40,095 nucleotides of DNA from a virus (IMGVR_UViG_3300038701_001365:1-40095); one strand, 5' to 3'. Shown: positions 1 through 32,642, numbered from the stretch's first letter. Made by a program: numbers and translations. The notes: generated by a model from the sequence alone, not told the origin.

Positions 1-197
1 TGTGTCAAATTAGCGTCTGTTAAATTAGCGTCTGATAAAATAGCATATCTTAAATCAGCATATCTTAAATCAGCGCCTGTTAAATTAGCACCTTTTAAAT
101 TAACATGTGTCAAATTAGCGTCTGTTAGATTAGCGTGTCTTAAACTATTGAACTCCTTCTCACTACCATCTTTAAACTTTATCTTATATTTACTCAT
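1..197 (-). CDS. Pentapeptide-repeat protein, 5' part (gene is split by the window ends and continues at 40002..39699)
   Basis: ATG at 197-195 overlaps the stop of ORF 194..391 (ATGA). Hand translation [66 protein letters not shown] stays open to base 1. It is in frame with ORF 39699..40010 once the 93-bp end duplication is collapsed (197+304=501 nt, 166 aa). Confidence 0.8.
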   Translation of the reverse strand, partial: MSKYKIKFKDGSEKEFNSLRHANLTDANLTHVNLKGANLTGADLRYADLRYAILSDANLTDANLT

Positions 198-391
198 ATA
201 GTCCCTTCTAATTTTATATCCGCTAATAATTCGTCTAGTTCACTTTCTAAATAAGCCCTATTGTTAAAAATATAAGCTTCTTCAAAATGCGTGTTTGACT
301 CTCCACAACATCCTATCTTATCTGTACTAACTTCTTCCATACAATACGGACAAACTAATTCTTTATCTAGGTTATCTATGTATTTATCCAT
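194..391 (-). CDS. Small Cys-rich (CxxC...CC, zinc-ribbon-like) hypothetical protein
   Basis: ORF track. Tightly packed with neighbours, with 1-4 nt overlaps. Motif CPYC...CCGE. Confidence 0.6.
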   Translation of the reverse strand: MDKYIDNLDKELVCPYCMEEVSTDKIGCCGESNTHFEEAYIFNNRAYLESELDELLADIKLEGTI

Positions 392-392
392 T

Positions 393-611
393 TTAAAACT
401 CCTCTGATACTAAATCGTGTAAATAGTTATAAGTTCTAGTGCTAAGTAAATATCCAGCCTGGTGTTTACCATTTATAGATAGGCAGAAGATATCTAGCTG
501 ACCGTCTTTAAGGTCATACCCGCCTTCAACTAACTGTCCGCCTATTGTAGTACTAAATGTACCGTAAACTTCAGTATTATCTAACTCTTTTTCTAATTCT
601 ATTTTTCTCAT
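393..611 (-). CDS. Hypothetical early protein
   Basis: ORF track. SD AAGGGAG lies 6 nt upstream of the ATG. First gene behind sigma54-type promoter P1. Confidence 0.65.
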   Translation of the reverse strand: MRKIELEKELDNTEVYGTFSTTIGGQLVEGGYDLKDGQLDIFCLSINGKHQAGYLLSTRTYNYLHDLVSEEF

Positions 612-619
612 GTTAACTC

Positions 620-725
620 CCTTTATATATACTATATAGCAAGCTTGATGCCAACTATAGAGCCCTTTAAAGCCCTCTAGAGCATAAAAAAGTGTCTAAC
701 TTATTAAAATTGTATACTATTTAAA
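620..725 (-). repeat. About 105-bp promoter module (copy 1), homologous to 4425..4530 and more loosely to 2098..2200
   Basis: Near-identical blocks: TATAGCAA..TGCCAACTATAGAGCCCTTTAAAG..CT.TAGAGCATA...AGTGTCTAACTT...TTGTATACTATTTA. Confidence 0.8.
638..654 (-). promoter_or_regulatory. sigma54-type -24/-12 promoter P1 (TTGGCAT-caagc-TTGCT), leftward
   Basis: The minus strand reads TTGGCATCAAGCTTGCT with GG-N10-GC spacing. The GC lies about 28 nt upstream of the ATG at 611. Confidence 0.7.
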
Positions 726-749
726 CACTTTCCTTTTGTTATAAGTTTA

Positions 750-758
750 TGTTATACT
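750..758 (+). promoter_or_regulatory. Extended -10 promoter (TGtTATACT) for a probably leaderless mRNA of ORF 765..1211
   Basis: TGTTATACT ends 7 nt before the A of ATG 765. There is no SD between them. Confidence 0.4.
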
Positions 759-764
759 ATCTAT

Positions 765-1211
765 ATGAAATTGTTATTAAACTTCGATAAAATACAACCT
801 ATGTCCATAAATAAGGCTTACTACAAAACTAGAAAGGTTCTAACTCAAGCCGCTAGAGACTATAGGAAGTCTATATGGGAGCAGATGGAACCCCATAGAC
901 AAGAAATAGACGAGTTTAAATCTAATTTTGATAAGTTTAAACATAGTTTGTCACTTAAAGTCTATGTTGGAGTACCTTCTAGTAGATTTTATACACAGCA
1001 AGGGTATATCAGTCTACACAGCTCAGATATCGACAATATAGCTAAACTTTTAATAGACAATACGGTAGACCCTAAATTTAGAGCTGAGAAATATGCTGCC
1101 CCAACTTTAGATATCGATGATAAATTTATAACCGCTCTATTTTTAAGTAAATACGCCTCTCCTGAAGAGCATTGGCATATCGAAATGGAGTTCGAGATCA
1201 TAGATTTATAA
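765..1211 (+). CDS. RusA-like Holliday-junction resolvase (putative)
   Basis: Motifs PMSINKAYY...SDIDNIAKLLIDN...DIDDKFI resemble the RusA catalytic Asp signature (DxDNxxKxxxD...DD). It is the only + strand gene inside the leftward early block. Confidence 0.5.
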   Translation: MKLLLNFDKIQPMSINKAYYKTRKVLTQAARDYRKSIWEQMEPHRQEIDEFKSNFDKFKHSLSLKVYVGVPSSRFYTQQGYISLHSSDIDNIAKLLIDNTVDPKFRAEKYAAPTLDIDDKFITALFLSKYASPEEHWHIEMEFEIIDL

Positions 1212-1316
1212 AAATAGAGCTAATAAGAAAGCTATGATTAAAGCCGTTGATAAAGCCCCTGTTAGAATCCCTGTTATAATAGTCATGAGTATAACCACAT
1301 CTTTTAAGCTTAGCAT
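1206..1316 (-). CDS. 36-aa single-pass membrane peptide
   Basis: Not in the ORF track (under 60 aa). Perfect SD AAAGGAGG lies 5 nt before ATG 1316. Translation MLSLKDVVILMTIITGILTGALSTALIIAFLLALFL. Confidence 0.5.
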   Translation of the reverse strand: MLSLKDVVILMTIITGILTGALSTALIIAFLLALFL

Positions 1317-1333
1317 GTTGCCTCCTTTTATAA

Positions 1334-1804
1334 TTATTTAAACACTGATTTAATTTTACCTTCTTTAAATAGCTCAAAAGACTCTTCTATACATCTAGAG
1401 AGCCCTAGATTTTCTACGCATCGGGTAGAGTCGGTAGTATATATACCCATTAATTTTCCGCGACTATTTACTGTAGATTCTATGTGATCAAACCCGAAGT
1501 AGCAGTGAAGCATTTCGTGGGCTAGTAAGGCCGTTTTAGCACTATCCGAGGCGCTTTCCCAAAACTTCTTTCTTATTTTTATAAGAACACCTCTTTTATT
1601 CGAGATCCGGCAGATACCGTTCTTAGAGGTAGCTTCTAAGTCATTATTAATTTCGACATTTATAAAAAGGTCCTCTAGACTTAGGCCTAGTTCACTAGCC
1701 ACCTCTATTTCGTAGGTGGTTATATCTGTACGTACTTTGTTTAAAGAGTTGTCGCAAGATGTACTATAAATTGTTATTATACATAATAATATATTTTTAA
1801 TCAT
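1334..1804 (-). CDS. Secreted or lipoprotein zinc metallopeptidase (HExxH)
   Basis: N-terminal signal sequence ending ..IYSTSC (lipobox-like). Motif AHEMLHCYFGFDH. Confidence 0.5.
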   Translation of the reverse strand: MIKNILLCIITIYSTSCDNSLNKVRTDITTYEIEVASELGLSLEDLFINVEINNDLEATSKNGICRISNKRGVLIKIRKKFWESASDSAKTALLAHEMLHCYFGFDHIESTVNSRGKLMGIYTTDSTRCVENLGLSRCIEESFELFKEGKIKSVFK

Positions 1805-1806
1805 TT

Positions 1807-2073
1807 CTATGCCCCTACTTTATTTCTGTATTCCATAAAGTCGATAACATCGCAGTCTGACTCCTCTTCAATGTAGAAGAAAATCTTATTGTACCCGTCT
1901 TTGTAGAACTTCGCTAAACACTGATCTACTTCGTACCACATGTCCTCAACATTTACTAAGTGATGTATCCCGCGCTCATCGTTTTGCCCAAACTCCTTAT
2001 TCTCCAGTATCTCATATTCTTTGAAGTTATAAAATTCTTCTAAAATATCTTGTAATCTCTCTTTGTTTGTCAT
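1807..2073 (-). CDS. Hypothetical acidic early protein
   Basis: ORF track. SD GAGGAG upstream. First gene behind sigma54-type promoter P2. Confidence 0.6.
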   Translation of the reverse strand: MTNKERLQDILEEFYNFKEYEILENKEFGQNDERGIHHLVNVEDMWYEVDQCLAKFYKDGYNKIFFYIEEESDCDVIDFMEYRNKVGA

Positions 2074-2112
2074 CCTAAACTCCTCTTGTTAGTTAGTTTA
2101 TATACAATATGT

Positions 2113-2128
2113 AGCAACATTGATGCCA
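2113..2128 (-). promoter_or_regulatory. sigma54-type -24/-12 promoter P2 (TGGCAT-caatg-TTGCT), leftward
   Basis: The minus strand reads GGTGGCATCAATGTTGCTAC with exact GG-N10-GC spacing. It lies about 40 nt upstream of ATG 2073. Confidence 0.7.
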
Positions 2129-2195
2129 CCTATAACCCTATTTAAACCCTAATATAGCTTTAATAAGTGTATATATTGTCCACAATGTACACTAT

Positions 2196-2417
2196 TTATT
2201 CACTATCTTTAAATGTAAAATTAGGCTCGCTTTTTTTAATATTGCTGACAATCTTATTTAATTTTTTAAACGCCGTCTCTAAATCTTTCCTAGAACTATT
2301 TGTATCAAGATGGTAGTAATAACCTTTAAACTTGTCTTTATACCTCTCTTCTACAAAGAGTTGTAAATTTACTATCTTTTTAATTATGGATAACCTGTTG
2401 CTTGAGTATAGTTTAAT
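2196..2417 (-). CDS. Hypothetical protein from a 73-codon stop-free ORF with no ATG/GTG/TTG (candidate AUU start)
   Basis: Hand translation IKLYSSNRLSIIKKIVNLQLFVEERYKDKFKGYYYHLDTNSSRKDLETAFKKLNKIVSNIKKSEPNFTFKDSE. AGGAGG lies 6 nt upstream of ATT 2417. Confidence 0.4.
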   Translation of the reverse strand: MKLYSSNRLSIIKKIVNLQLFVEERYKDKFKGYYYHLDTNSSRKDLETAFKKLNKIVSNIKKSEPNFTFKDSE

Positions 2418-2418
2418 T

Positions 2419-2619
2419 TCAAACCTCCTTGTTGTTCAATGCTTTTTCAATAATTTTTTGAATCTTCATAGCTTCTTTATAAGTCGCCTCATCGCCATTA
2501 TGTCTAATTTGTATGTGGAGACCTCTGGAATTATTGACGTTTTTAGTTTTTGAAAAAACACTAATGCCCAAACATTTTTGCTGGATATCTATGCCGTCTG
2601 TATTTTTGTATGCTTTCAT
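2419..2619 (-). CDS. Hypothetical early protein
   Basis: ORF track. Sits in an operon context. Confidence 0.55.
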   Translation of the reverse strand: MKAYKNTDGIDIQQKCLGISVFSKTKNVNNSRGLHIQIRHNGDEATYKEAMKIQKIIEKALNNKEV

Positions 2620-2648
2620 TTTAATATTCTCCTATTGGTTTAGTTGGT

Positions 2649-2927
2649 TTAAGCTTCTCTCTCTTCTCTGATGTCCCACGAACCCATCCAGATTAAAAAA
2701 CTAATAAGTTCCTCTCTGGTTGAATCTTCAGTGTAAGACTCAGCTCCAGTGGACTCTACAGCCTCAAGAAGTTTCGATGTTTCAATCTTGCTGAACTGTT
2801 CAGTGTATTCACTCAAACAGTCTTCAACGTATGAGTCGCAAGCGCCTTGCTGAGCCATATAATCAACGTCATCAGCGTTTATGTAGAACTCGCCTAAGCT
2901 CTCTATGTAAAAATATTGTTTGCTCAC
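2649..2927 (-). CDS. Hypothetical acidic early protein
   Basis: ORF track. Adjacent to 2929..3144. Confidence 0.6.
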   Translation of the reverse strand: MSKQYFYIESLGEFYINADDVDYMAQQGACDSYVEDCLSEYTEQFSKIETSKLLEAVESTGAESYTEDSTREELISFLIWMGSWDIREEREA

Positions 2928-2928
2928 T

Positions 2929-3144
2929 TTATACCGCCTTCTTAATGTTATATTCTGGTGACTCGATCACTCTACCTACAACCTCAACTATAGAAGTTTT
3001 AAGTAAATCTATGACCTGTCTTAACTGATACTCTCTTATTTCATTCACTGAACCAGGGTTGTTAGTTAGGTTTGAGAGCTCTGTCCTAGCCCTCTCTAAA
3101 CCTTGTGTTAACTCTATTATTTCATTTAATTGTGATTGTCTCAT
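2929..3144 (-). CDS. Hypothetical early protein (coiled-coil-like)
   Basis: ORF track. Abuts its neighbours. Confidence 0.6.
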   Translation of the reverse strand: MRQSQLNEIIELTQGLERARTELSNLTNNPGSVNEIREYQLRQVIDLLKTSIVEVVGRVIESPEYNIKKAV

Positions 3145-3378
3145 TTATATCTCCTTTTTAAGAGGTTTGAAGTATGTAGCCGTTTTCCCACAAATAGGGT
3201 CAAATTTAGTTCTCATACACATAAAATCTGCTGCCTCTAAAAACATCTGTATATTCATCATTTCTGATGTTTCAAACCCTGATGTCCATACTACCCACGT
3301 ATCATTATCTACTCTATCATAATGATCCATATTATTTGACATTCTCTCTAAACCTATTCTTTGTTTTTTAGTTAACAT
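3145..3378 (-). CDS. Hypothetical early protein (77 aa; start trimmed from 3465)
   Basis: ATG 3378 is preceded by AAGGAGA. The longer ORF-track start would run through promoter P3. Confidence 0.6.
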   Translation of the reverse strand: MLTKKQRIGLERMSNNMDHYDRVDNDTWVVWTSGFETSEMMNIQMFLEAADFMCMRTKFDPICGKTATYFKPLKKEI

Positions 3379-3412
3379 TCTTATTCTCCTTGTTAATTTA
3401 TACACACTATAT

Positions 3413-3428
3413 AGCAAAAGCGGTGCCA
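3413..3428 (-). promoter_or_regulatory. sigma54-type -24/-12 promoter P3 (TGGCAC-cgctt-TTGCT), leftward
   Basis: The minus strand reads GTTGGCACCGCTTTTGCTATATAG, about 35 nt upstream of ATG 3378. Confidence 0.7.
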
Positions 3429-3694
3429 ACTTGTACTGCCCACACATTAGAGTACAGCGATACAAAACTGTATATACATTGTGTAAACTGTTGCGGTATT
3501 CAATTAGTGTAATGATTTCAATACCTTATGTGTGTGTATATCTTTTTACCACTGTATAACCTATAAACACTTACTATTTTTGGTATGTTTTACTATCATT
3601 GTAACATAATAATACACCATATTTCCCGTTTTTAAACAATGTAACATAATATTGCGTACATAAGTTATCGATATAACAGGGGAAAAAATAAAGC

Positions 3695-3724
3695 TTGACA
3701 CGCTTATATTTGACTTGATATATT
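3695..3724 (+). promoter_or_regulatory. sigma70 promoter of structured RNA A (TTGACA-N18-TATATT)
   Basis: The hexamers are conserved with the RNA B promoter while the spacer sequence differs. An A-rich UP-like tract lies upstream. Confidence 0.65.
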
Positions 3725-3730
3725 AATTAG

Positions 3731-3835
3731 TGTTCCCCTTAATTAGAGCCCGCTTACATTATGACAATTAATAGGCCTTACGGCCATCCTAGTGAACACA
3801 TTGAGCAGCGGGTACACTGTGGCACAATATGTACA
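3731..3835 (+). ncRNA. Structured RNA family, copy A
   Basis: Outer stem CCCGCT(3749-3754)/AGCGGG(3807-3812). Hairpin GGCC-TTAC-GGCC (3774-3785). Conserved TAGTGAACACATTG and a GTGGCAC tail (3819-3825). The ends are approximate. Confidence 0.6.
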
Positions 3836-3924
3836 CAAATTACACCAATATATGATATTATACTCTAACTAATAACAATTATCAGTTAACTATTAAGTAA
3901 ACTAAACAAATAAAGTTTATACCC

Positions 3925-3953
3925 TTGACAAGCTTTTTAGTACCTGCTATATT
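3925..3953 (+). promoter_or_regulatory. sigma70 promoter of structured RNA B (TTGACA-N17-TATATT)
   Basis: Consensus -35, 17-nt spacer, and a 5/6 match at -10. It is followed by the same AATTAGTG start region as copy A. Confidence 0.7.
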
Positions 3954-3959
3954 AATTAG

Positions 3960-4060
3960 TGCTATCCCTTAAATAGAGCCAGCCTACATTATGTCACTTC
4001 GTAGGCCTTACGGCCACTGTAATGAACACCTTATGCGGCTGGTACTTAGTGACACTTAAT
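3960..4060 (+). ncRNA. Structured RNA family, copy B
   Basis: Outer stem CCAGCC(3979-3984)/GGCTGG(4037-4042), with two compensatory pair changes relative to A. Hairpin 4004-4015. GTGACAC tail 4049-4055. Confidence 0.6.
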
Positions 4061-4061
4061 A

Positions 4062-4145
4062 CCCACATACAAATTGACAATTAATAGGCCTTACGGCCAT
4101 CCTAGAGCACACTAGTGCTGTGGGCCACATAGTGACACAATATGT
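4062..4145 (+). ncRNA. Structured RNA family, copy C (no promoter of its own; probably co-transcribed with B)
   Basis: Outer stem CCCACA(4062-4067)/TGTGGG(4119-4124). Bases 4075-4104 are identical to 3763-3792 of copy A. Hairpin 4087-4098. GTGACAC tail 4132-4138. Confidence 0.5.
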
Positions 4146-4167
4146 CTTAATTTATGGGTTAACATAT

Positions 4168-4416
4168 TTATTCCCCCCACTGTACTTCTAATATTCTGTC
4201 ACCTTCGAAACAAATCTCTTGAACGTCCTTAAGTTCCATATAACTTTGGTTAACTCTGTACATGTTGTGAAGCATTATGCTTAAGGCAACACTGTTTAGG
4301 TTTTGAACTATCCAATCATAACCAACTAATATGGTATCGTTTTCAGTAGCCACTACGTACTCTCTATACTCGGGTCTTTTCACTTCATTTTGCTTGTTAT
4401 TAGTATCTCTAGTCAT
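4168..4416 (-). CDS. Hypothetical early protein
   Basis: ORF track. SD AAGGAGA upstream. Single gene behind promoter P4. Confidence 0.6.
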   Translation of the reverse strand: MTRDTNNKQNEVKRPEYREYVVATENDTILVGYDWIVQNLNSVALSIMLHNMYRVNQSYMELKDVQEICFEGDRILEVQWGE

Positions 4417-4424
4417 ATTATCTC

Positions 4425-4530
4425 CTTAGTTATATACTATATAGCAACATCAGTGCCAACTATAGAGCCCTTTAAAGTCCCTTAGAGCATAGAATAGTGT
4501 CTAACTTTTATCCTTTGTATACTATTTAGT
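4425..4530 (-). repeat. About 105-bp promoter module (copy 2), homologous to 620..725
   Basis: See 620..725. It includes TTGTATACTATTTA (4515-4528), at the same 65-bp distance from the -24 GG as in P1 and P2. Confidence 0.8.
4443..4458 (-). promoter_or_regulatory. sigma54-type -24/-12 promoter P4 (TGGCAC-tgatg-TTGCT), leftward
   Basis: The minus strand reads GTTGGCACTGATGTTGCTATATAG, about 30 nt upstream of ATG 4416. Confidence 0.7.
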
Positions 4531-4997
4531 CAATATATACTAGAAGTTGTCATTTTTGTATTTTATTGACAATATATGTCCGTGTATCAATTTGAGGCTA
4601 CCTGAGAGCCTTGTCACGCTCTTTAAATACAATCTATAACATAATACCCTAACTAATACTAAATCTACTGTATGGGCCTTCTATGGCTTCATCTTAATAA
4701 GCGTAAACATTAGTTGTTTAGCTAATTAGATTTAAACCATGGTAGCTCTTCTAAGCCCTTTTATTCAAATAGTATACAAATACCTTATGGTAGACATTAA
4801 ACGCCTCTATGAGGCTTATATGAACTTATTCGGGCTAAATAGTACTGGACCTAATTAGTGACTCAATGTAGAACGTCTAAATAATAGTCAATATCAACTA
4901 TCTAATAGTCTCAAATATGCCGGACATCTATTATGCTTTAATTATGCTGATCCCTTAAAGATAAGATTATTATGGAACTACATTGCTTTAGGGGGAG

Positions 4998-5013
4998 CGC
5001 AATCTCCATGCCA
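4998..5013 (-). promoter_or_regulatory. sigma54-type -24/-12 promoter P5 (TGGCAT-ggaga-TTGCG), leftward into ORF-free DNA
   Basis: The minus strand reads GTTGGCATGGAGATTGCGCT. It shares the AGTACAAGTTGGCA context with P3. I found no ORF longer than 10 codons with an SD in the 430 nt downstream. Confidence 0.55.
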
Positions 5014-5111
5014 ACTTGTACTAACCTGCGCTGAGGGTTCAATGAAGCATAAAGATGCTGGACTACTACTTGACATCCACTTAATATTGTGTTATGTGGC
5101 CTATTATTATG

Positions 5112-5127
5112 TGGTACATTTCTTGCA
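5112..5127 (+). promoter_or_regulatory. sigma54-type promoter P6 (TGGTAC-atttc-TTGCA), rightward
   Basis: Exact GG-N10-GC spacing. First of three sites spaced 38-39 bp apart. Confidence 0.55.
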
Positions 5128-5150
5128 ATAGAGTATTCCCCCTAAATACA

Positions 5151-5166
5151 TGGCATAATTCTTGCA
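5151..5166 (+). promoter_or_regulatory. sigma54-type promoter P7 (TGGCAT-aattc-TTGCA), rightward
   Basis: Exact GG-N10-GC spacing. Confidence 0.6.
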
Positions 5167-5188
5167 ACTAACTAAACCTCCTTGAGGT

Positions 5189-5204
5189 TGGCATATATCT
5201 TGCA
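5189..5204 (+). promoter_or_regulatory. sigma54-type promoter P8 (TGGCAT-atatc-TTGCA), rightward
   Basis: Exact GG-N10-GC spacing. Confidence 0.6.
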
Positions 5205-5304
5205 TAGAAGATGCTCAGTTCGAATCTATCCCATTCTGAGACACATATGCAGCGTATCATATTGAGACATGCCCCTTCAAAATTAGGCCCCCCCTAGGTA
5301 GAGG

Positions 5305-5320
5305 TGGCACGCAAATTGCA
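5305..5320 (+). promoter_or_regulatory. sigma54-type promoter P9 (TGGCACG-caaa-TTGCA; textbook consensus), rightward
   Basis: TGGCACGCAAATTGCA matches the YTGGCACGrNNNTTGCW consensus at every specified position. Confidence 0.65.
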
Positions 5321-5609
5321 GAGAGAGCGGTAGGAGTCCCCCTTTGCTATAACACAAAAAATAAGGCCCCCACACTAAGTGCCACAAGGTGTTTTCGGGT
5401 AAAAAGTGGCGGAATTATGACCATTTTTTGGCGGAAAAATGTGACGCCTTTTAGCTGACGAACTACAAATTATCCAATAATTATGGTATGTTACAAGTTT
5501 AGCTTTTTTAGGTTTTAGTGGAGTTCGTCACAAGATGTTGCGCTGACGAACTTTAGGTTAAATACCGCAAGGTGTAAGTAGCTGTAATCATTAGATTATA
5601 AGAATTCTA

Positions 5610-5637
5610 TTGACTATATATAAAAATATGTTATGAT
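5610..5637 (+). promoter_or_regulatory. sigma70 promoter (TTGACT-N16-TATGAT) of the packaging operon
   Basis: Hexamers read directly from the sequence. About 90 nt upstream of the first ORF. Confidence 0.5.
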
Positions 5638-5639
5638 TA

Positions 5640-5715
5640 ACAAACCACCTACTTAACTTAAGTTGGTTCGTCATAAATTGGTCGCCGACTAAAAGTAGGG
5701 CTGTAGGTGGTTTGT
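5640..5715 (+). promoter_or_regulatory. 13-bp perfect inverted repeat (ACAAACCACCTAC ... GTAGGTGGTTTGT) forming a leader stem-loop
   Basis: 5640-5652 pairs with 5703-5715. The 50-nt loop contains one iteron. It sits between the sigma70 promoter and the SD GAGGAG (5726-5731). Confidence 0.6.
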
Positions 5716-5735
5716 ATTGACACTTGAGGAGAAGC

Positions 5736-6176
5736 GTGACGAAGAAACTGACGAACATTAATGTAAGAGGTATGCTGACGAAGATTTACCTACAATCAGT
5801 TAAAAGTTACGATAAAGGCGCTCCTGACGAATCTACGGCCTATATAGAATGGGAAAAGCGTTCAATATATTTTAATGTATCAGATATTAGTAAAGAGACT
5901 ATTCGTCACGAATTGACCCATGCCTATATTAAGGCGAGCTTCACGGAGCAGATCCCAGATCTAACCCTAGAGCAATTAGAAGAGATATTCTGTGAAGTGG
6001 TCTCCCATTTTGGGACTACTATTATAAAACAAGCTGATAGCATCCATAAGGAAATGTTATCCCTTATTAAGGAGGATAAATTTGGGAACAGTAAAGACAA
6101 AGAAAGAAAGTCTACAAAAAGCGTCTATGGCGAAATTGAACAAGAACGTGAAGAAGCTGATTTTAGATCAGAATGA
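5736..6176 (+). CDS. Small HExxH protein (putative metallopeptidase-like)
   Basis: ORF track 5724..6176. GTG 5736 follows GAGGAG at 4 nt; ATG 5772 is an alternative start. Motif IRHELTHAY. Confidence 0.4.
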   Translation: MTKKLTNINVRGMLTKIYLQSVKSYDKGAPDESTAYIEWEKRSIYFNVSDISKETIRHELTHAYIKASFTEQIPDLTLEQLEEIFCEVVSHFGTTIIKQADSIHKEMLSLIKEDKFGNSKDKERKSTKSVYGEIEQEREEADFRSE

Positions 6177-6997: not shown

Positions 6998-7661
6998 CCT
7001 CTCATCCCTACGCAGAATTTCTGTAGCAACTCTAGTAGGACTTATAATATTTTCAGCTACACCATTGGCGTTAAGCCCTGATGCAGATTCGTTTAAGCCG
7101 GGGTTAGTAAAAAAAATAGCACCCTACACACTACCTTTAGTGTACCCAGACGGAAATAAATTCTGCTCAAGTTCTGCCGTACAATTCCTAGATAAGGTGT
7201 ATACGGTAACAAATAACCATTGTTGTGAAGTAGATTCGTTTATAGGTGACTTGAGATTAGTAGGAGATACTATACAAAATATATTGTACCAAAGCCCTGA
7301 CCATGATCTATGTATACTTACATCTAAATTTAAAACATCTCCTATTACATTAGCTACAGATGACGCAGAGGTTCTAGACGAGGTCCTATTAATGGGATAC
7401 CCTAGAGGAGAGGCCCTCACTCCAAGATTCGGGCACGTCCTAGTAAAAGATATGCGGCTACATATAGCGGGGTATAGTTACGTGTCCCATGTCATATCTA
7501 CTGTCACCTACGCAGGTAATTCGGGCTCCCCCCTGTTTAATACGGAAGGCGAGATAGTAGGCGTCCTATATGCAGGTAACCTAGTATTACACACTTACGG
7601 CATAATGGTTCCCCATAGATACTTATTAAAAGCATTAATGGAAGCGCGTATCAGTGAGTAA
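6969..7661 (+). CDS. Trypsin-like (S1) serine protease with N-terminal signal/TM segment
   Basis: Catalytic-triad contexts TNNHC, DHDLCIL and GNSGSPLF. Hydrophobic N-terminus ...LVGLIIFSATPLALS. Confidence 0.7.
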   Translation: MYQKTLLRHSLSSLRRISVATLVGLIIFSATPLALSPDADSFKPGLVKKIAPYTLPLVYPDGNKFCSSSAVQFLDKVYTVTNNHCCEVDSFIGDLRLVGDTIQNILYQSPDHDLCILTSKFKTSPITLATDDAEVLDEVLLMGYPRGEALTPRFGHVLVKDMRLHIAGYSYVSHVISTVTYAGNSGSPLFNTEGEIVGVLYAGNLVLHTYGIMVPHRYLLKALMEARISE

Positions 7662-9078
7662 TCTCAGAGAACAGATTTTACAGGACTTAAACAAACCCCG
7701 AGGGGACGGTTTAAAAATCGGTCTCAAACAAGCTTTACACGAAAAGCAGCTAGAGCTTTTAACACCTATCCTACGTGATAAAAAGAAAATAACCTTCGGT
7801 GCATGTGGACGTAAGTTCGGTAAGTCTAGGGCTACTTGTTATTTAGCATGGAGGTGGGCTTTATTAAATCCAAACTCTTCTGTATATATAGTGTGTCCCG
7901 AAGGTACTCATGGTAGACGTATCTACTGGAAAGATGCGCGTATATATCAATTCTTAGGGGTAGATTCTAAGAAGTATATACTAGGTAAACCTAACAGCAG
8001 GGAATTAACAATAAATTTTAAGAATGGTTCTAACATACAGATAATGGGTTCCGATAACTATATGGCAGCCAACGGTTTAACGCCCGATCTAGTTATATAT
8101 GATGAGTTTAAAGGGTTCCACCCAGAATTCCACACACAAATGGACCCGAATAGGGCCGCTAAAGCTGCGCCTTTATTAATAATAGGTACACTAGCCGAGG
8201 ACGGTATAAGAAATAAAGATGAATATTACGCGCTATTAGAAGATTGTGAAGAACACCCAGAAGATACTCCAGTATTTAAATACGGTACGTTCGATAATCC
8301 TATTAATCAATTACCAGGACAAAAAGAGGCTATCTTGAAACAGATAGAACTACTTAGAAGACAAGGTAAAGAGCACGTAGTTCAAAGAGAGTATTTCTCC
8401 AAGATTATACCAGGAGGAGAAACTGCAATCTTTCCCTACTTTAACCCAGATGAGCACGTATTCCCTCACGAAGAGTTAGTACAAGAAATAAATAAAGATG
8501 TCAACAATCTTGAGTGGTGCGTATCTATTGACCCAGGGAATAGGACAGTATTTGCAAGTGTTATGGCAGCGCATGACCCAGAGAACTCTGTACTATACGT
8601 ATTAGATGAGAATTATGCTAGAACACAGTCAGAAACATTAATATCAAAATTTATGGCAGCTTTAAGAGGTAAGATGCTGTCTCTATACCCTTCTGGGGAT
8701 CTCGATAGAGGTTGGGCTAAGGTATGTGATGAGCAGGCAGCATGGGCTATTCTGGAGACTCTAGGACAGTTTAATGACATGGCCTTTATGAAGTCTAATA
8801 AAAATGCTAACAAAAAAGATTATGGTATTACACTACTAAATGAAGCAATGCAGAAGGGACTCATAAAAATAAGTGATAGATGCACTAATTTAATTAAAGA
8901 GATCACAGATTACCACATGAATAAACAAGGTAGAATACCTAAAGTTAATGACCATGGTATAGACGCATTAAGATATCTTATACACCATATAAATTATACT
9001 ATTGTACCCGATATTGATTATAAAGAAAAAAGGGACTATAGGGACGATAATAGTAGTATTTGGGGGGACTTCTTTTAA
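7654..9078 (+). CDS. terL: Terminase large subunit
   Basis: Walker A-like GACGRKFGKS, Walker B LVIYDEF, and C-terminal nuclease Asp motifs (SIDPG, HGIDALRY). Size and position fit. Confidence 0.85.
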   Translation: MSNLREQILQDLNKPRGDGLKIGLKQALHEKQLELLTPILRDKKKITFGACGRKFGKSRATCYLAWRWALLNPNSSVYIVCPEGTHGRRIYWKDARIYQFLGVDSKKYILGKPNSRELTINFKNGSNIQIMGSDNYMAANGLTPDLVIYDEFKGFHPEFHTQMDPNRAAKAAPLLIIGTLAEDGIRNKDEYYALLEDCEEHPEDTPVFKYGTFDNPINQLPGQKEAILKQIELLRRQGKEHVVQREYFSKIIPGGETAIFPYFNPDEHVFPHEELVQEINKDVNNLEWCVSIDPGNRTVFASVMAAHDPENSVLYVLDENYARTQSETLISKFMAALRGKMLSLYPSGDLDRGWAKVCDEQAAWAILETLGQFNDMAFMKSNKNANKKDYGITLLNEAMQKGLIKISDRCTNLIKEITDYHMNKQGRIPKVNDHGIDALRYLIHHINYTIVPDIDYKEKRDYRDDNSSIWGDFF

Positions 9079-9608: not shown

Positions 9609-11651
9609 ATGAGTATACACGATAGCGAATTTAATAGTAGTTCATTCTTTGCTGTCCCTAAAAAGGATAGAGAAGCTTGGCTACAGAGAACAATAGAGAC
9701 TCTTATAGAGGAGTCCCAAGCCCGTACACAAAATCAAAGAAATAACTTGATGGGTTACCTAGGGGTAGAAACAGATACAGTAAGGGATATCACTAGAAGA
9801 GAAGATAGAAATTATAGAAATGGTAGAAGGGCTTCTAAATTTAAGATTAACCATCTATTTGACGTAGTAGAGACTAAGGTCTCTCAAATGACCCGACTTA
9901 AATCTAACGTAGAGGTAAAGCCTACTCACCCAGACTGGGGGGATAGAGGCGCAGCAGAAGTTTCTAAACATGTAATTAGAAATATATTTGATCAACAAAA
10001 CTTTGACGCTAAAGCTATAGATATAGTAAGACAGACAGAAATTACTGGAGAATCTTATCTTTTTGTAGAGTGGGATAAAGATTGTGGTGACCTACATCCT
10101 TCTTACGTAGAGGCTAAAAACGCAGGACTAGACTCTGTACCAGGCCCAGACGGTAAACCTATCAGCTTAAAAAAGCCTATCTACTTAGGAGACGTTAAGC
10201 ATACAGTAGAATTTCCGTGGAGAATTTTTCTACAGAGAAAAGAAAAGTTTGAAGATTGCGACTACGTATTTAGAATCCATATCATGGAAAGAGATAAGGT
10301 CGAGTCTAACTTCCCTAAATACGAAGGTAAACTAGCAGAATCTTCTGGAATAACTATATGGGACGTCAACATGTTAGAAGAACAGTATATGGAAAACCAT
10401 GTAGCTGTTTACGAATTCTTCCATAGAAGAACTAAAGAGATGCCCAATGGTTATCACGCAATGTTTTGTGATGCGGGTATCTTAATGGAACAAGACCTAC
10501 CTTACGAGCATGGTAAACTTCCTATGGTTAGATTAACCGATATTGATTTACCAGGATATATCAATGGTTTAGCTAAGTTCACATCGGCACTACAAATTCA
10601 AAATAGATATGACGACTTAAATACATTAATTTTAAAAAACATCTACTTCCTAGCTCACCCTAAGTACGCTGTACCTAAAAATGCAGTAGACATTAGACAG
10701 TTAGGTAATGATAATACCGTTGTAGAATGGGTAGGAGCACCTCCTACAGTACTACAGGCCCAAGCAAATAGTTCAGAGGTGTATAAGTATGGTCCTGAGA
10801 TTATTAGGTCTATGGAACGTATTATGGGTAATCACGGTATCTCTAGAGGAGAAATGCCTAACGGTATAAGTGCCGCAAGTGCTTTAAGACTGTTAAATGA
10901 AATGGAATCTATTAGAGCTACCTCAGCTATATCTAAATACGCTCAGTTCGTAAAGGATGTGGCTAGATTGACTTTATCTACAGCAGGTCAATACTACTTA
11001 CCATCTGACGGTAGACTAGTTAAGATCGTAGGAGAAGATAACGCTGCTAGTATTAGGTTCTTTGATGCAGCAGACCTTAACAAGCCTTACGACGTACAGT
11101 TTGAAAACTCTACAGGATTCCCTGATACACAAGCAGCTCAAAAACAAGAGATTATAGATGTATTACAGTATGCTGGGGACGCAGCACCTTTAGGCAGATT
11201 GTTAGATGCTCTAGACATAGCTAACGCAGATAATTATAACGACTACTTAACGGCAGCAGTAAAAGCTTCTGATAGTGAGAACCAAGACTTACAGGCAGGT
11301 AGACCAGTAGCACCTCCTGAGATGCATCAAGACCTTATAACTAAATGGGAATCTAGGTTCCACTTATTACAATCTAGAGCATTTAATGAAGAATCTACAC
11401 AAGAGGTATATAATGCCGTAATGCTTAATGTTAAGCAGGTAGAGGAACTTATGATAGCTAAAATGGCTAAAAGCCCTATATTCCAAGCAGAAGTAGCTAG
11501 ATTAGTTCATTTCCCATTAATGGACCACTCCGGCTATACGCCCCCTCAGTCTAGACAACAAACAGAGGCTATAGTACAAGGAGAGGCAAATAGAGGTGAA
11601 CCGGTTACGGACATGATACCAGCAGAACCTAAGAAAATTGGAGAAAAATAA
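9609..11651 (+). CDS. Portal protein
   Basis: 680 aa. Follows terL and precedes the scaffold and capsid genes. Confidence 0.75.
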   Translation: MSIHDSEFNSSSFFAVPKKDREAWLQRTIETLIEESQARTQNQRNNLMGYLGVETDTVRDITRREDRNYRNGRRASKFKINHLFDVVETKVSQMTRLKSNVEVKPTHPDWGDRGAAEVSKHVIRNIFDQQNFDAKAIDIVRQTEITGESYLFVEWDKDCGDLHPSYVEAKNAGLDSVPGPDGKPISLKKPIYLGDVKHTVEFPWRIFLQRKEKFEDCDYVFRIHIMERDKVESNFPKYEGKLAESSGITIWDVNMLEEQYMENHVAVYEFFHRRTKEMPNGYHAMFCDAGILMEQDLPYEHGKLPMVRLTDIDLPGYINGLAKFTSALQIQNRYDDLNTLILKNIYFLAHPKYAVPKNAVDIRQLGNDNTVVEWVGAPPTVLQAQANSSEVYKYGPEIIRSMERIMGNHGISRGEMPNGISAASALRLLNEMESIRATSAISKYAQFVKDVARLTLSTAGQYYLPSDGRLVKIVGEDNAASIRFFDAADLNKPYDVQFENSTGFPDTQAAQKQEIIDVLQYAGDAAPLGRLLDALDIANADNYNDYLTAAVKASDSENQDLQAGRPVAPPEMHQDLITKWESRFHLLQSRAFNEESTQEVYNAVMLNVKQVEELMIAKMAKSPIFQAEVARLVHFPLMDHSGYTPPQSRQQTEAIVQGEANRGEPVTDMIPAEPKKIGEK

Positions 11652-12919
11652 TGAGTAATAAAGAAGAAGCACTAAATAATCAGGTAAACACAGACCACGA
11701 GGGGCCAGATCTATCTGAAGCCCTACAGGCGTTCGGTTTAGGTGATACAGAAGATATAACTGATAAAGAAGCCCATTTAGACGGGTCTGACGGAGATTTA
11801 CCCACTGTGAGTGAGGTAGAACAGAAGGTAGTAGAGAATTTTGAACAACCTGATGTAGAAACACTAGAAATGCCCGATGAAGATGATATAGAAGTATCTT
11901 TTAATGAAGATGGTGAGGTAGTAGTAGAAAAGAAGGCTGAAAAAGAGTCTGATACCCAGAATGAAACCACTAAAGAGGAAGATAAAGCTACCACAGAAGT
12001 GTCTGATTTTAAGTCTTATGTAAGCAATTTAGACGACGAATTAGTTGTCAAACACACTATAGACGGAGAAGAAGTAGAAATTAACCTTAAAGAGGCTTTA
12101 AGTAGTACTCTTAATAACCACGTAGCTAAGGCTACCATAGACAAGCGTTTCTCGGAACTTGACAAGCAGAAGAAAAGCTTATATACTGAGAAGCAGTCTT
12201 TGATAAAAGACATTGAGGAAATAGGTAAACAGGCGTCAGTTGACAACTGGGAAGGGGCTTTTGAAGCTCTAGGTAAGTTGTCAGGTAATACTCCAGGATA
12301 CCTAATAAAGGAAAAAATGATTTCAGCGTTATTACCTGAGATCAAGAAGAGATCAGAAATGACTAACGAGGAGTTAAGATCTGAATACCTAAAATCTCAA
12401 AATGAGCATTTATCAAAGCTAAACGAGTCTGAAGCTCAAAAACGAATCGCGAAGGCAAACCAAGAGAAACTGGAGCGAACAGTTGAGAGTATACGGGAAA
12501 CTCACAAAATCAGTACACAAGAATGGAATGATACGTTCGCAAAGCTAGATCAGGAAGTACCTGTAGATCAGGATATAACCTTAGAGATGGTAAAAGAGAA
12601 GGTATTACAGGAAAGAGCTTCAAACGAGGTCTCATCTAAAGTGGATACACTATTAAAAGATGTAGAAGGAGTTACTGAAGAGGCTCAAAAGTATATGGCT
12701 GATATCATCGCTAAGCACCCAGAATTTACTGACGAGCAGCTTAACGAGATAGTCAAACTAGCTACTACACCTGACCCCGAACCTGTTACTGATAATAAGA
12801 AAGAAATTGAAGACGATCTTCGACAGAAGATGGGAAAAACTAAGCTTTCAGGTGAGCGGGCCGATCAGAATCAAATAGACCAAGATCGAATAATGGCAAT
12901 CCTAGAAGGCGATGACTAA
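11651..12919 (+). CDS. Scaffolding protein (putative)
   Basis: Very acidic, low-complexity, coiled-coil-like. Lies between the portal and capsid genes. Confidence 0.6.
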   Translation: MSNKEEALNNQVNTDHEGPDLSEALQAFGLGDTEDITDKEAHLDGSDGDLPTVSEVEQKVVENFEQPDVETLEMPDEDDIEVSFNEDGEVVVEKKAEKESDTQNETTKEEDKATTEVSDFKSYVSNLDDELVVKHTIDGEEVEINLKEALSSTLNNHVAKATIDKRFSELDKQKKSLYTEKQSLIKDIEEIGKQASVDNWEGAFEALGKLSGNTPGYLIKEKMISALLPEIKKRSEMTNEELRSEYLKSQNEHLSKLNESEAQKRIAKANQEKLERTVESIRETHKISTQEWNDTFAKLDQEVPVDQDITLEMVKEKVLQERASNEVSSKVDTLLKDVEGVTEEAQKYMADIIAKHPEFTDEQLNEIVKLATTPDPEPVTDNKKEIEDDLRQKMGKTKLSGERADQNQIDQDRIMAILEGDD

Positions 12920-14546: not shown

Positions 14547-15104
14547 ATGCGTACCGGTGTTATATATTGTATTACTAACCAGATAAATGGTAAGAAGTAC
14601 GTAGGTCAGACAATAGTTCCTCTAAGAAAGAGAATGTCTAGACATAAATACGCTGAATCAGCTATAGGCAACGCCATACGAAAATATGGTTTCGATAACT
14701 TTAAAGTAGAGGTTCTACACGAAGCTAGACAAGAGGTATTAGGAGATATAGAAAAGGAGTGTATATTGAATCACGACTCTATGTACCCTAACGGATACAA
14801 CCTAACCTTAGACTGCTCAAACTACAGGACATTCTGCGACCACTCCCTAAAAAAGAAGGGTAAACACACATTAGGTAAAAAACAAAGTAAAGAATTGATA
14901 GAAAAGAGAATGAGTAAAATAAGAAAACCCGTTACTTGCATAGAAGATCAGATAACCTTTCTAAGCATGAACTACGCTGCTGAGCACTACGGAATAGTGT
15001 CAGTAAAGAGTATTAGAAGGCAGATTAAAGGTATACGTAAGAGTAAGATTAAGGGTAAAACGTTTGTAAAAGCAGGAGGTGCGTCATCGCATTCATACCA
15101 ATAG
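14547..15104 (+). CDS. GIY-YIG homing endonuclease (freestanding)
   Basis: N-terminus GVIYCITNQINGKKYVGQT...RHKY. Basic C-terminal DNA-binding-like region. Inserted between the capsid and tail genes. Confidence 0.8.
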   Translation: MRTGVIYCITNQINGKKYVGQTIVPLRKRMSRHKYAESAIGNAIRKYGFDNFKVEVLHEARQEVLGDIEKECILNHDSMYPNGYNLTLDCSNYRTFCDHSLKKKGKHTLGKKQSKELIEKRMSKIRKPVTCIEDQITFLSMNYAAEHYGIVSVKSIRRQIKGIRKSKIKGKTFVKAGGASSHSYQ

Positions 15105-26661: not shown

Positions 26662-26976
26662 TTATTTACCCAACTCTTTTGACCTATTATTAGCCTGTTG
26701 CTTCCAATCTTCCCACCTACAGTTACCTGGCTCATAGTTGCCATTGTTATCTATTCTATCTAGCTCTAGACCGTCTCTGTAAAACTCTCCCATATCTTCC
26801 CAGAACCCTACAAAATCTAGCCAATCATCGCAAACAGTTATACCGCGGCCACCATATAATTTATAATTAGTATTATTTTTATTAAGGCACCTCATTTTCA
26901 TGCAAGTCCATATTTTATAAGGCCGTGTACGCGACATACCGTGCCTCATATTTTTAGTTAAAATCGGGATTTCCAT
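26662..26976 (-). CDS. HNH-like homing-endonuclease-family protein (paralog 2, short form)
   Basis: YKIW..MK.RC....YGGRGITVCDDW..F..F..DMG....LDRIDNNGNYEPGNCRW. SD GGAGGA before ATG 26976. Confidence 0.65.
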   Translation of the reverse strand: MEIPILTKNMRHGMSRTRPYKIWTCMKMRCLNKNNTNYKLYGGRGITVCDDWLDFVGFWEDMGEFYRDGLELDRIDNNGNYEPGNCRWEDWKQQANNRSKELGK

Positions 26977-27433
26977 GTTTATCCTCCAGGTAGGCTAACA
27001 TAGCTACATTGGCAGCTATATGGTCTAAGTGACGTAGTCCAGACTCACTATCAAACTCCTCTCCTGAAATAATTGCAAAGGTATGTCTTAGTAGAGCTGC
27101 ATATACTCTCTTCAAGTCTTCTTTTTTAAAACCTTTATAACCATTTCTAGTGTACTTACATGCGCCAAATCCTAGAGCCCTTGCTATAGCATTGACGGCT
27201 AACGGATGTACAAGAGATAAATCAGGTTTACCTTCATCAAACTTAGTAGCACCGACCTCTTCTGGTCCGACAGGGCGTAAATCGACCGCATAGAAATAAT
27301 AATTGTCATCAAAAGAGCTACTAGCTACTTCATAATAGTAATTCCCTACTGGGCTAGGCCTTCTACCTACCACACTTGTTACCTCTCCCGTAGACTTTAT
27401 AACTACTCTATCCCCTATTTCAAACTTGACCAT
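26954..27433 (-). CDS. dATP/dGTP pyrophosphohydrolase-like (DUF5664/MazZ-like) protein with an extra N-terminal small beta domain
   Basis: KFDEGKPDLSL....A.ALGFGACKY......RHTFAIISGEEFDSESGLRHLDHIAANVAMLAYL fits the family signature (K.D.GK...L....GA.KY....RH....GE..D.ESG..H..H...N). Confidence 0.6.
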   Translation of the reverse strand: MVKFEIGDRVVIKSTGEVTSVVGRRPSPVGNYYYEVASSSFDDNYYFYAVDLRPVGPEEVGATKFDEGKPDLSLVHPLAVNAIARALGFGACKYTRNGYKGFKKEDLKRVYAALLRHTFAIISGEEFDSESGLRHLDHIAANVAMLAYLEDKHGNPDFN

Positions 27434-30083: not shown

Positions 30084-30422
30084 TTAATCCATATCATATT
30101 TAGTTTTTAGAAAATCTAGCATTAAGACCATATGTTTATAGGACATATAGAAAACATAGCCGCCATTAAAGAAATTCGTATGCCTACATTCTTTCATACT
30201 TTCTGGCCCGCTAACCGTACATAAAGCCTCGTATATTACGCCGTCACTATCTTCTGAGGCAAACGATACAAATAGACGTGTGCACCAGTCCTCGTTTAAG
30301 ACAGAATACTGCTCAAAATAACCGAAATTCTTACCGTCTAGCTGTACATACGTCATATCTTCGTATTCGTGCTGTAGTAATAATAGCTCTTTACTGGTGT
30401 CTAGTCCCATAATATCTATCAT
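30084..30422 (-). CDS. Hypothetical protein
   Basis: Start trimmed to ATG 30422 (ATGA overlap with the polymerase stop; SD GGGAG). Confidence 0.55.
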   Translation of the reverse strand: MIDIMGLDTSKELLLLQHEYEDMTYVQLDGKNFGYFEQYSVLNEDWCTRLFVSFASEDSDGVIYEALCTVSGPESMKECRHTNFFNGGYVFYMSYKHMVLMLDFLKTKYDMD

Positions 30423-32134: not shown

Positions 32135-32642
32135 TAGTCCTCCTATTATAGGCCTGTTGCTTCGTGGTTGCCCATCTACAGTTAGAAGGCTCATAATTAC
32201 CGTCGTTGTCTATTCGGTCTATAGAGTGTCTAGCTGAGGGTCTTTTTCCCATATCTTCTAGAAAGTTCTCAAAAGAGTTTAACCATCTATCGCATACAGT
32301 AATACCCCTACCTCCCCAGTCCTTATATCTTTTATGATTCGTATTGGTACATCTATCCCTTAAACCTTTCCACGCCGTATATTCTGGCGTTAGGGAAAGC
32401 CCATGTTTAAAGTTGTGGTGACGTGGGCCTTTTAGTAACTTATGTAGCTTGTAAGCACTCTTAGATGCAGTATCCTGTCTAAGGCACCCACAAGACTTTG
32501 TGTGACCTGACTTAATCTTATAATCACTACATATAAATATAACGCCGCACTTACATAGAAACTCTGAGAAGGATTTCCCTCCCTTGCCTCTTTTCACAGT
32601 TTTATTTAATAGAGCTATTACCCTACTACCTTTTACATTCAT
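32115..32642 (-). CDS. HNH-like homing-endonuclease-family protein (paralog 3, long form)
   Basis: CKCG...SCGCL finger plus WGGRGITVCDRWLNSFENFLEDMG...IDRIDNDGNYEPSNCRW. Sits directly upstream of, and overlapping, the polymerase gene. Confidence 0.7.
   Translation of the reverse strand: MNVKGSRVIALLNKTVKRGKGGKSFSEFLCKCGVIFICSDYKIKSGHTKSCGCLRQDTASKSAYKLHKLLKGPRHHNFKHGLSLTPEYTAWKGLRDRCTNTNHKRYKDWGGRGITVCDRWLNSFENFLEDMGKRPSARHSIDRIDNDGNYEPSNCRWATTKQQAYNRRTNVSKRV

Follow-up and report, generated by a model that had tools for sequence, protein, structure and literature searches.

How does a phage switch on its early genes if the sequences in front of them look like promoters that cannot fire unaided? 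This question is raised by IMGVR_UViG_3300038701_001365:1-40095 (here called the window, the whole stretch of 40,095 bases that was analyzed), the complete genome of an uncultured phage, in which four leftward cassettes of small early genes each lie behind a sequence resembling a -24/-12 promoter for sigma-54 (RpoN). Sigma-54 promoters are silent without an ATP-driven AAA+ activator; sigma-70 promoters fire on naked DNA unaided. The four sites had been proposed in an earlier account made from the DNA alone (the sequence-only reading). We found that they belong to a larger set of sites, also present where the two gene arms diverge and conserved in distant relatives, and we put the probability that the window sites are functional sigma-54 promoters at about three in four.

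Sigma-54-type sites in the early arm and control region

We searched both strands of the whole window for the pattern TGGCAY-N5-TTGCW. The scan and a direct reading of the sequence recovered the four proposed minus-strand sites, in their proposed places, as exact matches (TGGCATCAAGCTTGCT at 653-638, TGGCATCAATGTTGCT at 2128-2113, TGGCACCGCTTTTGCT at 3428-3413, and TGGCACTGATGTTGCT at 4458-4443), together with sites that the sequence-only reading had not listed: three exact plus-strand sites at 5151, 5189, and 5305 and two with one mismatch, at 4998 (minus strand) and 5112 (plus strand). The regions and sites concerned are the following.

194-4416, minus strand: leftward early arm, four cassettes of small open reading frames (ORFs), drawn from ORF lists and upstream Shine-Dalgarno sequences
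4416-4168, minus strand: early cassette, an 82-amino-acid gene
3378-2419, minus strand: early cassette
2073-1334, minus strand: early cassette, plus a 36-amino-acid membrane peptide
611-194, minus strand: early cassette
4460-5723, no strand: control region, ~1.26 kb of non-coding DNA that separates the early/replication arm (leftward) from the structural arm (rightward), with five sigma-54-type sites
638-654, minus strand: sigma-54-type promoter before the 611-to-194 cassette; TTGGCAT-CAAGC-TTGCT; exact match, 17.9 bits; GG at 652-651, GC at 640-639; predicted start ~627, with a 16-nucleotide (nt) leader to ATG 611
2113-2129, minus strand: sigma-54-type promoter before the 2073-to-1334 cassette; GTGGCAT-CAATG-TTGCT; exact match, 16.9 bits; predicted start ~2102
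3413-3429, minus strand: sigma-54-type promoter before the 3378-to-2419 cassette; TTGGCAC-CGCTT-TTGCT; exact match, 19.1 bits; predicted start ~3402
4443-4459, minus strand: sigma-54-type promoter before the 82-amino-acid gene at 4416-4168; TTGGCAC-TGATG-TTGCT; exact match, 17.6 bits; predicted start ~4432
4998-5013, minus strand: weaker leftward site in the control region; TGGCAT-GGAGA-TTGCG; one mismatch, 10.6 bits
5112-5127, plus strand: weak rightward site; TGGTAC-ATTTC-TTGCA; one mismatch, 12.7 bits
5151-5166, plus strand: rightward sigma-54-type site facing the structural arm; TGGCAT-AATTC-TTGCA; exact match, 18.6 bits; predicted start ~5177
5189-5204, plus strand: rightward sigma-54-type site; TGGCAT-ATATC-TTGCA; exact match, 16.7 bits; predicted start ~5215
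5305-5320, plus strand: rightward sigma-54-type site; TGGCAC-GCAAA-TTGCA; exact match, 15.3 bits; predicted start ~5331

The GG-N10-GC spacing claimed for the four leftward sites is kept at each of them and, beyond the claim, at all seven exact and both one-mismatch sites. The leftward sites are in non-coding DNA, upstream of and co-oriented with their cassettes, with their 3' ends 27, 40, 35, and 27 nt from ATG 611, 2073, 3378, and 4416, respectively, and each of these ATGs follows a strong Shine-Dalgarno sequence of the AGGAG type, as had been described. A downstream TATATAGT(A/G)T block said to be common to all four is present at three of them, the site at 2128 reading TACATATTGT and not TATATAGTRT. 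The melting region of the window sites is extremely AT-rich (TATATAGTATATA), and the sites themselves are asymmetric, with no dyad symmetry. The promoter at 3413-3429 has the best matrix score in the window and an upstream flank that, by alignment, is unrelated to those of the other three leftward sites. Among the control-region sites, the one at 5112 opens a row of three tandem sites 39 and 38 nt apart, and the leftward one at 4998-5013 resembles a TTGCG-type site, TGGCATAGAAGTTGCG, of a relative (L001/L002).

Seven exact matches in the window compare with 0.04 expected, and none of 100 shuffled sequences held more than one; with one mismatch allowed there were 10 matches versus 1.35 expected. 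Every one of the seven exact sites lies within 638-5320, as do nine of the ten best, and the remaining 35 kb holds one weak one-mismatch match. To score the sites, we used a 19-position weight matrix that is independent of them, built from 52 validated sigma-54 promoters (24 from Escherichia coli [EcoCyc] and 28 from Desulfomicrobium baculatum [RegPrecise]; S2 table of PMC12316311). The seven exact sites scored 15.3 to 19.1 bits and the reference promoters had a median of 17.0 and a minimum of 7.4 on this E. coli/Desulfomicrobium matrix. Random sequences with matching first-order composition (100 in all) had a mean top score of 13.3 bits per 40 kb. A matrix check of the kind named by the sequence-only reading came out in favor of the sites. 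When we varied the spacer from N2 to N9, only N5 was enriched (7 matches in the window and 62 unique ones in relatives); other spacers gave 0 or 1 match in the window and 0 to 4 in relatives, with the exception of N7 (15 in relatives). We rejected the N7 matches as a signal, as they trace to one conserved terminase codon string, TGG CAT ACA GAA TTT GCT (WHTEFA). Conservation is concentrated in two blocks flanking a free 5-nt spacer.

If the sites are sigma-54 promoters, the host sigma-54 holoenzyme would bind the GG and GC elements as a closed complex, which a host AAA+ enhancer-binding protein would open, acting through an ATAGTRTAYA box ~90 nt upstream or from solution. Transcription would start ~12 nt downstream of the GC, at the predicted positions given above, and the minus-strand leaders, of 16 to 29 nt, would hold the ribosome-binding sites. 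Four sites would serve the leftward cassettes, three or four would face the structural genes, and one weak site would face left in the control region.

Relatives of the phage and the motif in unrelated DNA

A near-identity DNA search of GenBank phages gave no match, and protein searches of the same phages, with primase-polymerase and terminase as queries, gave best identities of 21 to 27%, with no cultured relative and no clue to the host; terminase scans of JGI metagenome contigs and GTDB genomes also yielded no relatives. In IMG/VR, the terminase has many uncultured relatives on contigs of 38 to 45 kb. We assembled 80 IMG/VR loci with a terminase profile (973 kb in all), whose large terminases are 38 to 49% identical to that of the window and whose G+C content is 32 to 41%. 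One terminase homologue carries a Tara Oceans source tag, and at least some relatives therefore come from marine samples.

These loci contain 71 exact sites, 61 of them unique, versus ~1 expected. Nearly all lie 1.8 to 2.6 kb upstream of the terminase gene, where the arms diverge, on both strands, and 56 of the 61 unique sites are outside ORFs of at least 80 amino acids, in DNA that makes up only 17% of the bases. The search of related phages, another check named at the outset, found that distant relatives keep the motif in the corresponding place of the genome. Between the window and its relatives, the control regions have no detectable DNA similarity (by DNA alignment with L001), and orthology is not demonstrable site by site.

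Positions that the search pattern leaves free also follow the sigma-54 consensus YTGGCACGr: of 59 family sites, 54 have a pyrimidine just before TGG, the spacer opens with G in 30 and with A in 19, and its second base is a purine in 55. These counts are somewhat inflated by kinship among the loci; the pattern itself cannot generate them.

In the closest full-length relative (L015, L098), whose terminase is 73% and whose primase-polymerase is 61% identical, there are five leftward sites in the control region and an internal site (16.0 bits) that lies within a gap of 660 nt and precedes the next early cassette by 60 nt. Because this relative has such an internal site, re-priming of the early arm by sigma-54-type sites is not unique to the window, which does so more often.

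The sites are arranged in several ways among the relatives. Back-to-back divergent pairs ~20 nt apart occur in L063/L079, L068, and L074-L076, which, from the sequence, is the layout expected for one leftward and one rightward promoter. Tandem arrays of three sites (L095) and of four at 50-nt spacing (L020) are also found. Several relatives carry 34-bp face-to-face units, TGGCAY-N5-TTGCW-N2-3-WGCAA-N5-RTGCCA. We rejected a conserved hairpin as the cause of these units, their spacers being non-complementary (ACTTC versus AAGGT in L062), and we read them as two overlapping recognition sites; as a speculation, such units could make leftward and rightward initiation mutually exclusive.

The same signal is found far outside this family. 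The longer form TTGGCAY-N5-TTGCTATATAGT is present in 12 unrelated viral contigs, where all sites score 17 to 22 bits and often form divergent pairs before genes, and in 120 or more metagenome stretches, among them contigs that, at several hundred kilobases, must be bacterial. At the metagenome sites, the free position after TGGCAY is G in 56 of 96 and A in 33 of 96, and eight of the metagenome loci have a GAFTGA activator gene within a few kilobases of the site. We read the motif as the general sigma-54 signal and not as one private to one phage. Several of the viral matches run on as ...TATAGTATGGCATGA, and one 87-kb contig (FUFK010043905.1) holds at least three copies.

One unrelated 43-kb IMG/VR contig (L010) encodes a stand-alone 244-amino-acid sigma-54 activator AAA+ domain at 11406-12140 on the plus strand (Pfam Sigma54_activat, E = 1e-52; ESELFGH...GSFTGA) and has two almost identical sigma-54 sites, one at 5101-5116 (minus strand) before a 1,581-amino-acid ORF with no Pfam match and one at 12183-12198 (plus strand) just past the activator gene. 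Apparent cultured phages with their own sigma-54 activator were rejected, the matches being bacterial contigs filed among phage records, and we found no bona fide cultured GenBank phage with such a gene.

Upstream box, activator, and competing explanations

The sequence-only reading had placed three of the four leftward sites in a reused module with an upstream box, and we found the copies at 608-723, 4413-4528, and 2083-2198 to be one repeat family.

608-723, minus strand: 116-nt promoter module, reference copy (repeat-family detection and alignment)
4413-4528, minus strand: second copy of the module, 81% identical to the 608-723 copy
2083-2198, minus strand: third, more diverged copy, 67% identical to the 608-723 copy
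711-720, minus strand: ATAGTRTAYA box, a candidate enhancer or operator, ~90 nt ahead of the predicted start
2186-2195 and 4516-4525, minus strand: ATAGTRTAYA copies in the corresponding position, ~90 nt ahead of the predicted starts of the 2128 and 4458 promoters
626-635 and 4431-4440, minus strand: ATAGTRTAYA copies over the predicted starts of the 653 and 4458 promoters
4769-4778, plus strand: inverted ATAGTRTAYA copy

Judged by its 81% identity, the 653 module is a recent copy of the 4458 module. The boxes described at 710-723, 4515-4528, and 2185-2198 are present, as is a related one at 3468-3480; the last contains a perfect palindrome, TGTATATACA, and is 18 nt nearer its promoter, at 3428. 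ATAGTRTAYA occurs six times in the window versus 1.4 expected, and reading of the sequence upstream of the internal site in L098 revealed no recognizable counterpart. The distance of exactly 65 bp from box to GG is indeed constant, but it is not independent evidence, because a module free of insertions and deletions was duplicated. As for the proposed enhancer role, the position near -90 fits, but the copies over the start sites fit an operator equally well, perhaps with looping, and the box was duplicated with the module. The 653 module also has its upstream region in common with a RusA-like resolvase gene (765-1211, plus strand), which lies on the opposite strand within the leftward early arm; in the relative L001, the RusA-like homologue is on the same strand as its neighbor genes.

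The absence of an AAA+ enhancer-binding protein from the phage, noted in the sequence-only reading, was borne out by Pfam scans of nearly all listed window ORFs, which gave no Sigma54_activat or suitable AAA+ domain. A six-frame scan for the GAFTGA/ESELFGH signatures was negative in the window and in every family locus (~80), and PHROGs scans of 20 small unannotated ORFs gave no regulator. The window ORFs scanned with Pfam also include no phage RNA polymerase or sigma factor, and none was found in the relatives. Because the phage lacks a gene for an activator, the host most likely supplies one. Cluster names (one "Dojkabacteria" bin, probably mis-binned) and endolysin homologues were uninformative as to that host. 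Nearly every window gene has an AGGAG-type ribosome-binding site, and such strong Shine-Dalgarno usage argues against a Bacteroidota host, given what is generally known of translation initiation in that phylum.

The claim that lytic phages are not known to drive early or replication genes from sigma-54 promoters was overstated as to novelty, there being a precedent for sigma-54 use by a lytic phage. To our knowledge, Pseudomonas aeruginosa phage YuA is the only documented phage case of sigma-54 promoters, and their dependence was reportedly confirmed in an rpoN mutant. YuA is a virulent tailed phage that, like the window phage, encodes neither an RNA polymerase nor an activator, and part of its transcription relies on the sigma-54 of the host. 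In its record (NC_010116; phage described by Ceyssens et al. 2008, J Bacteriol 190:1429), three promoters of the late region are annotated as high-activity "-24/-12 consensus" promoters, and nine YuA promoters with a conserved phage-specific motif have been proposed to need phage-encoded factors. The YuA sites lie in the late particle/lysis region and have a weak consensus, whereas those of the window lie before early cassettes and in the control region, in both directions. On the matrix that gives the window sites 15 to 19 bits, the YuA fragments 38392-38570, 40888-41035, and 47152-47312 reached at best 10.3, -1.7, and -1.0 bits, respectively, and none of the three holds a good consensus site. 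YuA and the window phage are unrelated; the closest matches to the window primase-polymerase among cultured phages, those of the Pseudomonas phage 73 group included, are only 21 to 25% identical. In addition, YuA has been tested experimentally whereas the window phage is known from sequence alone. What is new here is that the sites are near-consensus and many, stand before early cassettes and at a divergent control region, and are conserved in a large uncultured family.

Compared with bacterial sigma-54 promoters such as E. coli pspA, pspG, and glnAp2, the window sites have the same 10-nt separation of GG and GC (consensus YTGGCACGrNNNTTGCW), and score around the median of the validated set; three of them have a candidate upstream element, ~90 nt ahead of where transcription is predicted to start. 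At 15 of 16 bases, the 5305-5320 site agrees with the E. coli pspA core (S2 table, PMC12316311), and family sites TGGCATGATTCTTGCA resemble E. coli pspG TGGCATGATTCTTGTA, identities that are within chance given the ~3,300 site-by-reference comparisons made. Unlike bacterial promoters, they occur on a virulent-type phage genome at a density of 7 to 10 in 5 kb, and the phage sites are often tandem, back-to-back, or face-to-face, with an AT-rich melting region and no cognate activator gene nearby. The arrangement is like that of T7 A1-A3 and lambda PL/PR, where several strong near-consensus host-type promoters, in duplicated modules, stand at the head of the early arm and at a divergent control region. 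In contrast, those T7 and lambda promoters are sigma-70 promoters that need no activator, whereas the window sites are of the activator- and ATP-dependent sigma-54 type, which would tie early expression to the condition of the host.

Several points weigh against a sigma-54 promoter function. Activator-dependent promoters are an odd choice for genes needed first, the more so in a phage that encodes no activator, and the host was not pinned by the GTDB scan, phage homology, cluster names, or endolysin homologues. Three of the four leftward sites (653, 2128, and 4458) belong to paralogous copies of a single module and are not independent events. The face-to-face units of several relatives are not a usual layout for promoters, and a symmetric DNA-binding protein would fit them too. 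In addition, sigma-70 consensus promoters adjoin some of the relatives' sigma-54 sites (TTGACA-17-AATAAT in L095 and TTGACA-17-TATTAT in L098), so that the relatives seem to use both routes. Finally, the whole case is one of sequence.

The main alternative, which we consider unlikely, is that sigma-54 binds the sites and the early arm is driven by sigma-70, with the sigma-54 sites in an accessory or regulatory role as a booster responding to host physiology, a silent closed-complex roadblock or insulator, or a mutually exclusive left/right switch. The adjoining sigma-70 promoters, the overlapping face-to-face pairs and tandem arrays (four sites in L020, three in L095), and the lack of an activator gene would all fit such a role, as would a perfect TATAAT at 3862-3857 (minus strand) and the following feature of the window.

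5610-5637, plus strand: sigma-70-like promoter before the first rightward gene (5724); TTGACT, 16 nt, TATGAT, with a TG extension; 10 of 12 consensus matches

Given this promoter, the phage also carries ordinary host-type promoters. However, a consensus scan found no sigma-70-type hexamer pair near 653, 2128, 3428, or 4458, and the 27- to 40-nt distance of these sites from the first ATG of each cassette is the geometry of a working promoter. In addition, the RusA-like gene would block read-through, and the 611 cassette would need its own promoter because that opposite-strand gene separates it from the cassette upstream. An overlapping sigma-70 promoter at the four sites was also rejected: TTGGCA is only 10 to 12 nt from TATATA/TATAGT, and the sequence 17 nt upstream of TATAGT reads TATAGT, a poor -35 element that matches TTGACA at 2 of 6 positions.

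Still less probable, in our estimate, is that the motif is read by a phage-encoded factor, either a regulator or a small protein that retargets the polymerase, and resembles sigma-54 sites by coincidence or mimicry. The 34-bp units of several relatives have an outer dyad, TGGCA...TGCCA, as for a dimeric binder, the early arm is rich in small ORFs with no Pfam or PHROGs assignment, and the nine YuA promoters with a phage-specific motif offer a comparison. The window's own sites lack the dyad, however, and sites for such factors normally drift, whereas here a 16-position motif persists down to 38% terminase identity. Positions on which the search did not select also match sigma-54, the scores are like those of validated bacterial promoters, and promoters of this type are also found in viral and bacterial contigs unrelated to the phage, in some cases next to real sigma-54 activator genes. 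Two other candidates were rejected: a phage-polymerase promoter, given that the scanned ORFs have no polymerase domain and the conservation is not one contiguous block, and a phage-repressor operator, given that the sites are asymmetric and, unlike immunity-specific operators, unchanged to 38% terminase identity. That the repeats are RNA or DNA structures (terminators, processing sites, or packaging or replication signals near genome ends) with an incidental motif is scarcely credible: the control region does have C-run/G-run hairpins and a TGACGAA cluster, and many relatives' contigs end inside it, but the N5 spacers of face-to-face units are non-complementary with no hairpin conserved, the four cassette promoters are non-palindromic and far from the control region, and conservation falls in two sigma-54 blocks at fixed spacing.

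We therefore retain sigma-54 promoter function as the best explanation of the window sites. If it is true, sigma-54 would be a regular part of the transcription strategy of one whole phage family, and its sites before early genes would mean either that the start of infection is conditional on host physiology or that there is a new mechanism of opening. A wider proposal, which we regard as doubtful, is that the early program and control region of this ~40-kb podovirus-like family are tied to sigma-54 with no activator of their own and depend on a new opener or a Psp/Rtc-type sensor. If no host activator serves the sites, some unannotated small early protein would be a new non-AAA+ opener of sigma-54 complexes; alternatively, infection itself could fire a stress-triggered Psp- or Rtc-type activator of the host, which the phage would use as a sensor. 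The seven short sites with predicted starts would make a clean test system.

Gene arms, other promoters, and repeats

The window has a G+C content of 33 to 42%, and its ends (1-86 and 40010-40095) repeat each other over ~86 nt, the usual overlap of a circular contig; a pentapeptide-repeat gene (start 197, minus strand) reads unbroken over the junction. Minus-strand genes run from 4416 down to 194, through this gene over the junction, and then from 40010 down to 26662, in the order of small ORFs with no known domains, replication genes (including those for a PD-(D/E)XK nuclease and an XRE-type helix-turn-helix protein), and an M15 endolysin gene. The plus-strand genes at 5724-26624 are particle genes, encoding by Pfam a P22-like portal, an SU10-like capsid protein, and a tail collar protein. 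Landmark genes of the two arms are as follows.

35504-37669, minus strand: primase-polymerase
30419-32194, minus strand: family A DNA polymerase
7654-9078, plus strand: large terminase

The ORF at 26954-27433 (minus strand) matches the N-terminal domain of a MazZ-like dATP/dGTP diphosphohydrolase (E = 6e-23), a family known from phages that substitute 2-aminoadenine for adenine; no PurZ-like gene turned up in the window Pfam scans. Three paralogous HNH endonuclease genes (34305-34919, 32115-32642, and 26662-26976, minus strand) are scattered over the replication/lysis arm, and a GIY-YIG endonuclease gene (14547-15104, plus strand) lies between capsid and tail genes; all four probably encode homing endonucleases.

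The control region (4460-5723) has no ORF of 40 amino acids or more, only implausible ones of 20 to 39, and no Rfam match; tRNA and Rfam searches of the window likewise found none. Its sigma-54-type sites are flanked by C-run/G-run elements (CCCCC, an A-rich stretch, and CCCCC or GGGGG, some forming perfect hairpins), which occur at 5280-5375 in the window, at 1760-1900 in L015, and in many family loci. A short block, GCAAAGGG.ACTCC.ACCGC, is common to the window and L015. Nine of the 11 TGACGAA heptamers in the genome (2.3 expected genome-wide) cluster at 5456-5908 in both orientations, from the control region into the first rightward gene and upstream of a small-terminase-like gene; they are candidate binding sites for packaging or replication proteins. 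Approximately 28 of the 80 family contigs begin or end 1.4 to 2.6 kb upstream of the terminase gene, which points to physical ends of the genome or to a repeat that breaks the assembly.

A ~90-nt structured repeat with no Rfam match is present in three copies (3736-3825, 3966-4055, and 4049-4138) in the stretch from the 4416 cassette to the 3428 promoter. Each copy has an invariant GGCC-GUAA-GGCC hairpin with a GNRA loop on the minus strand, and the closing stem varies yet still pairs (CCCGCT/AGCGGG, CCAGCC/GGCTGG, and CCCACA/TGTGGG); the repeat may represent a non-coding RNA of the phage or else an element for processing or termination. Near-perfect sigma-70 promoters at 3695-3724 and 3925-3953 (plus strand; TTGACA, 17 to 18 nt, TG-n-TATATT; 11 of 12 matches) each lie directly before a repeat copy, on the strand opposite the early genes, and would yield transcripts antisense to the early arm. 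In L098, a G+C-rich stretch of ~300 nt (1590-1880) interrupts the AT-rich 660-nt early-arm gap, flanked by an intrinsic terminator and a sigma-70/sigma-54 promoter pair, and may also be a structured RNA.

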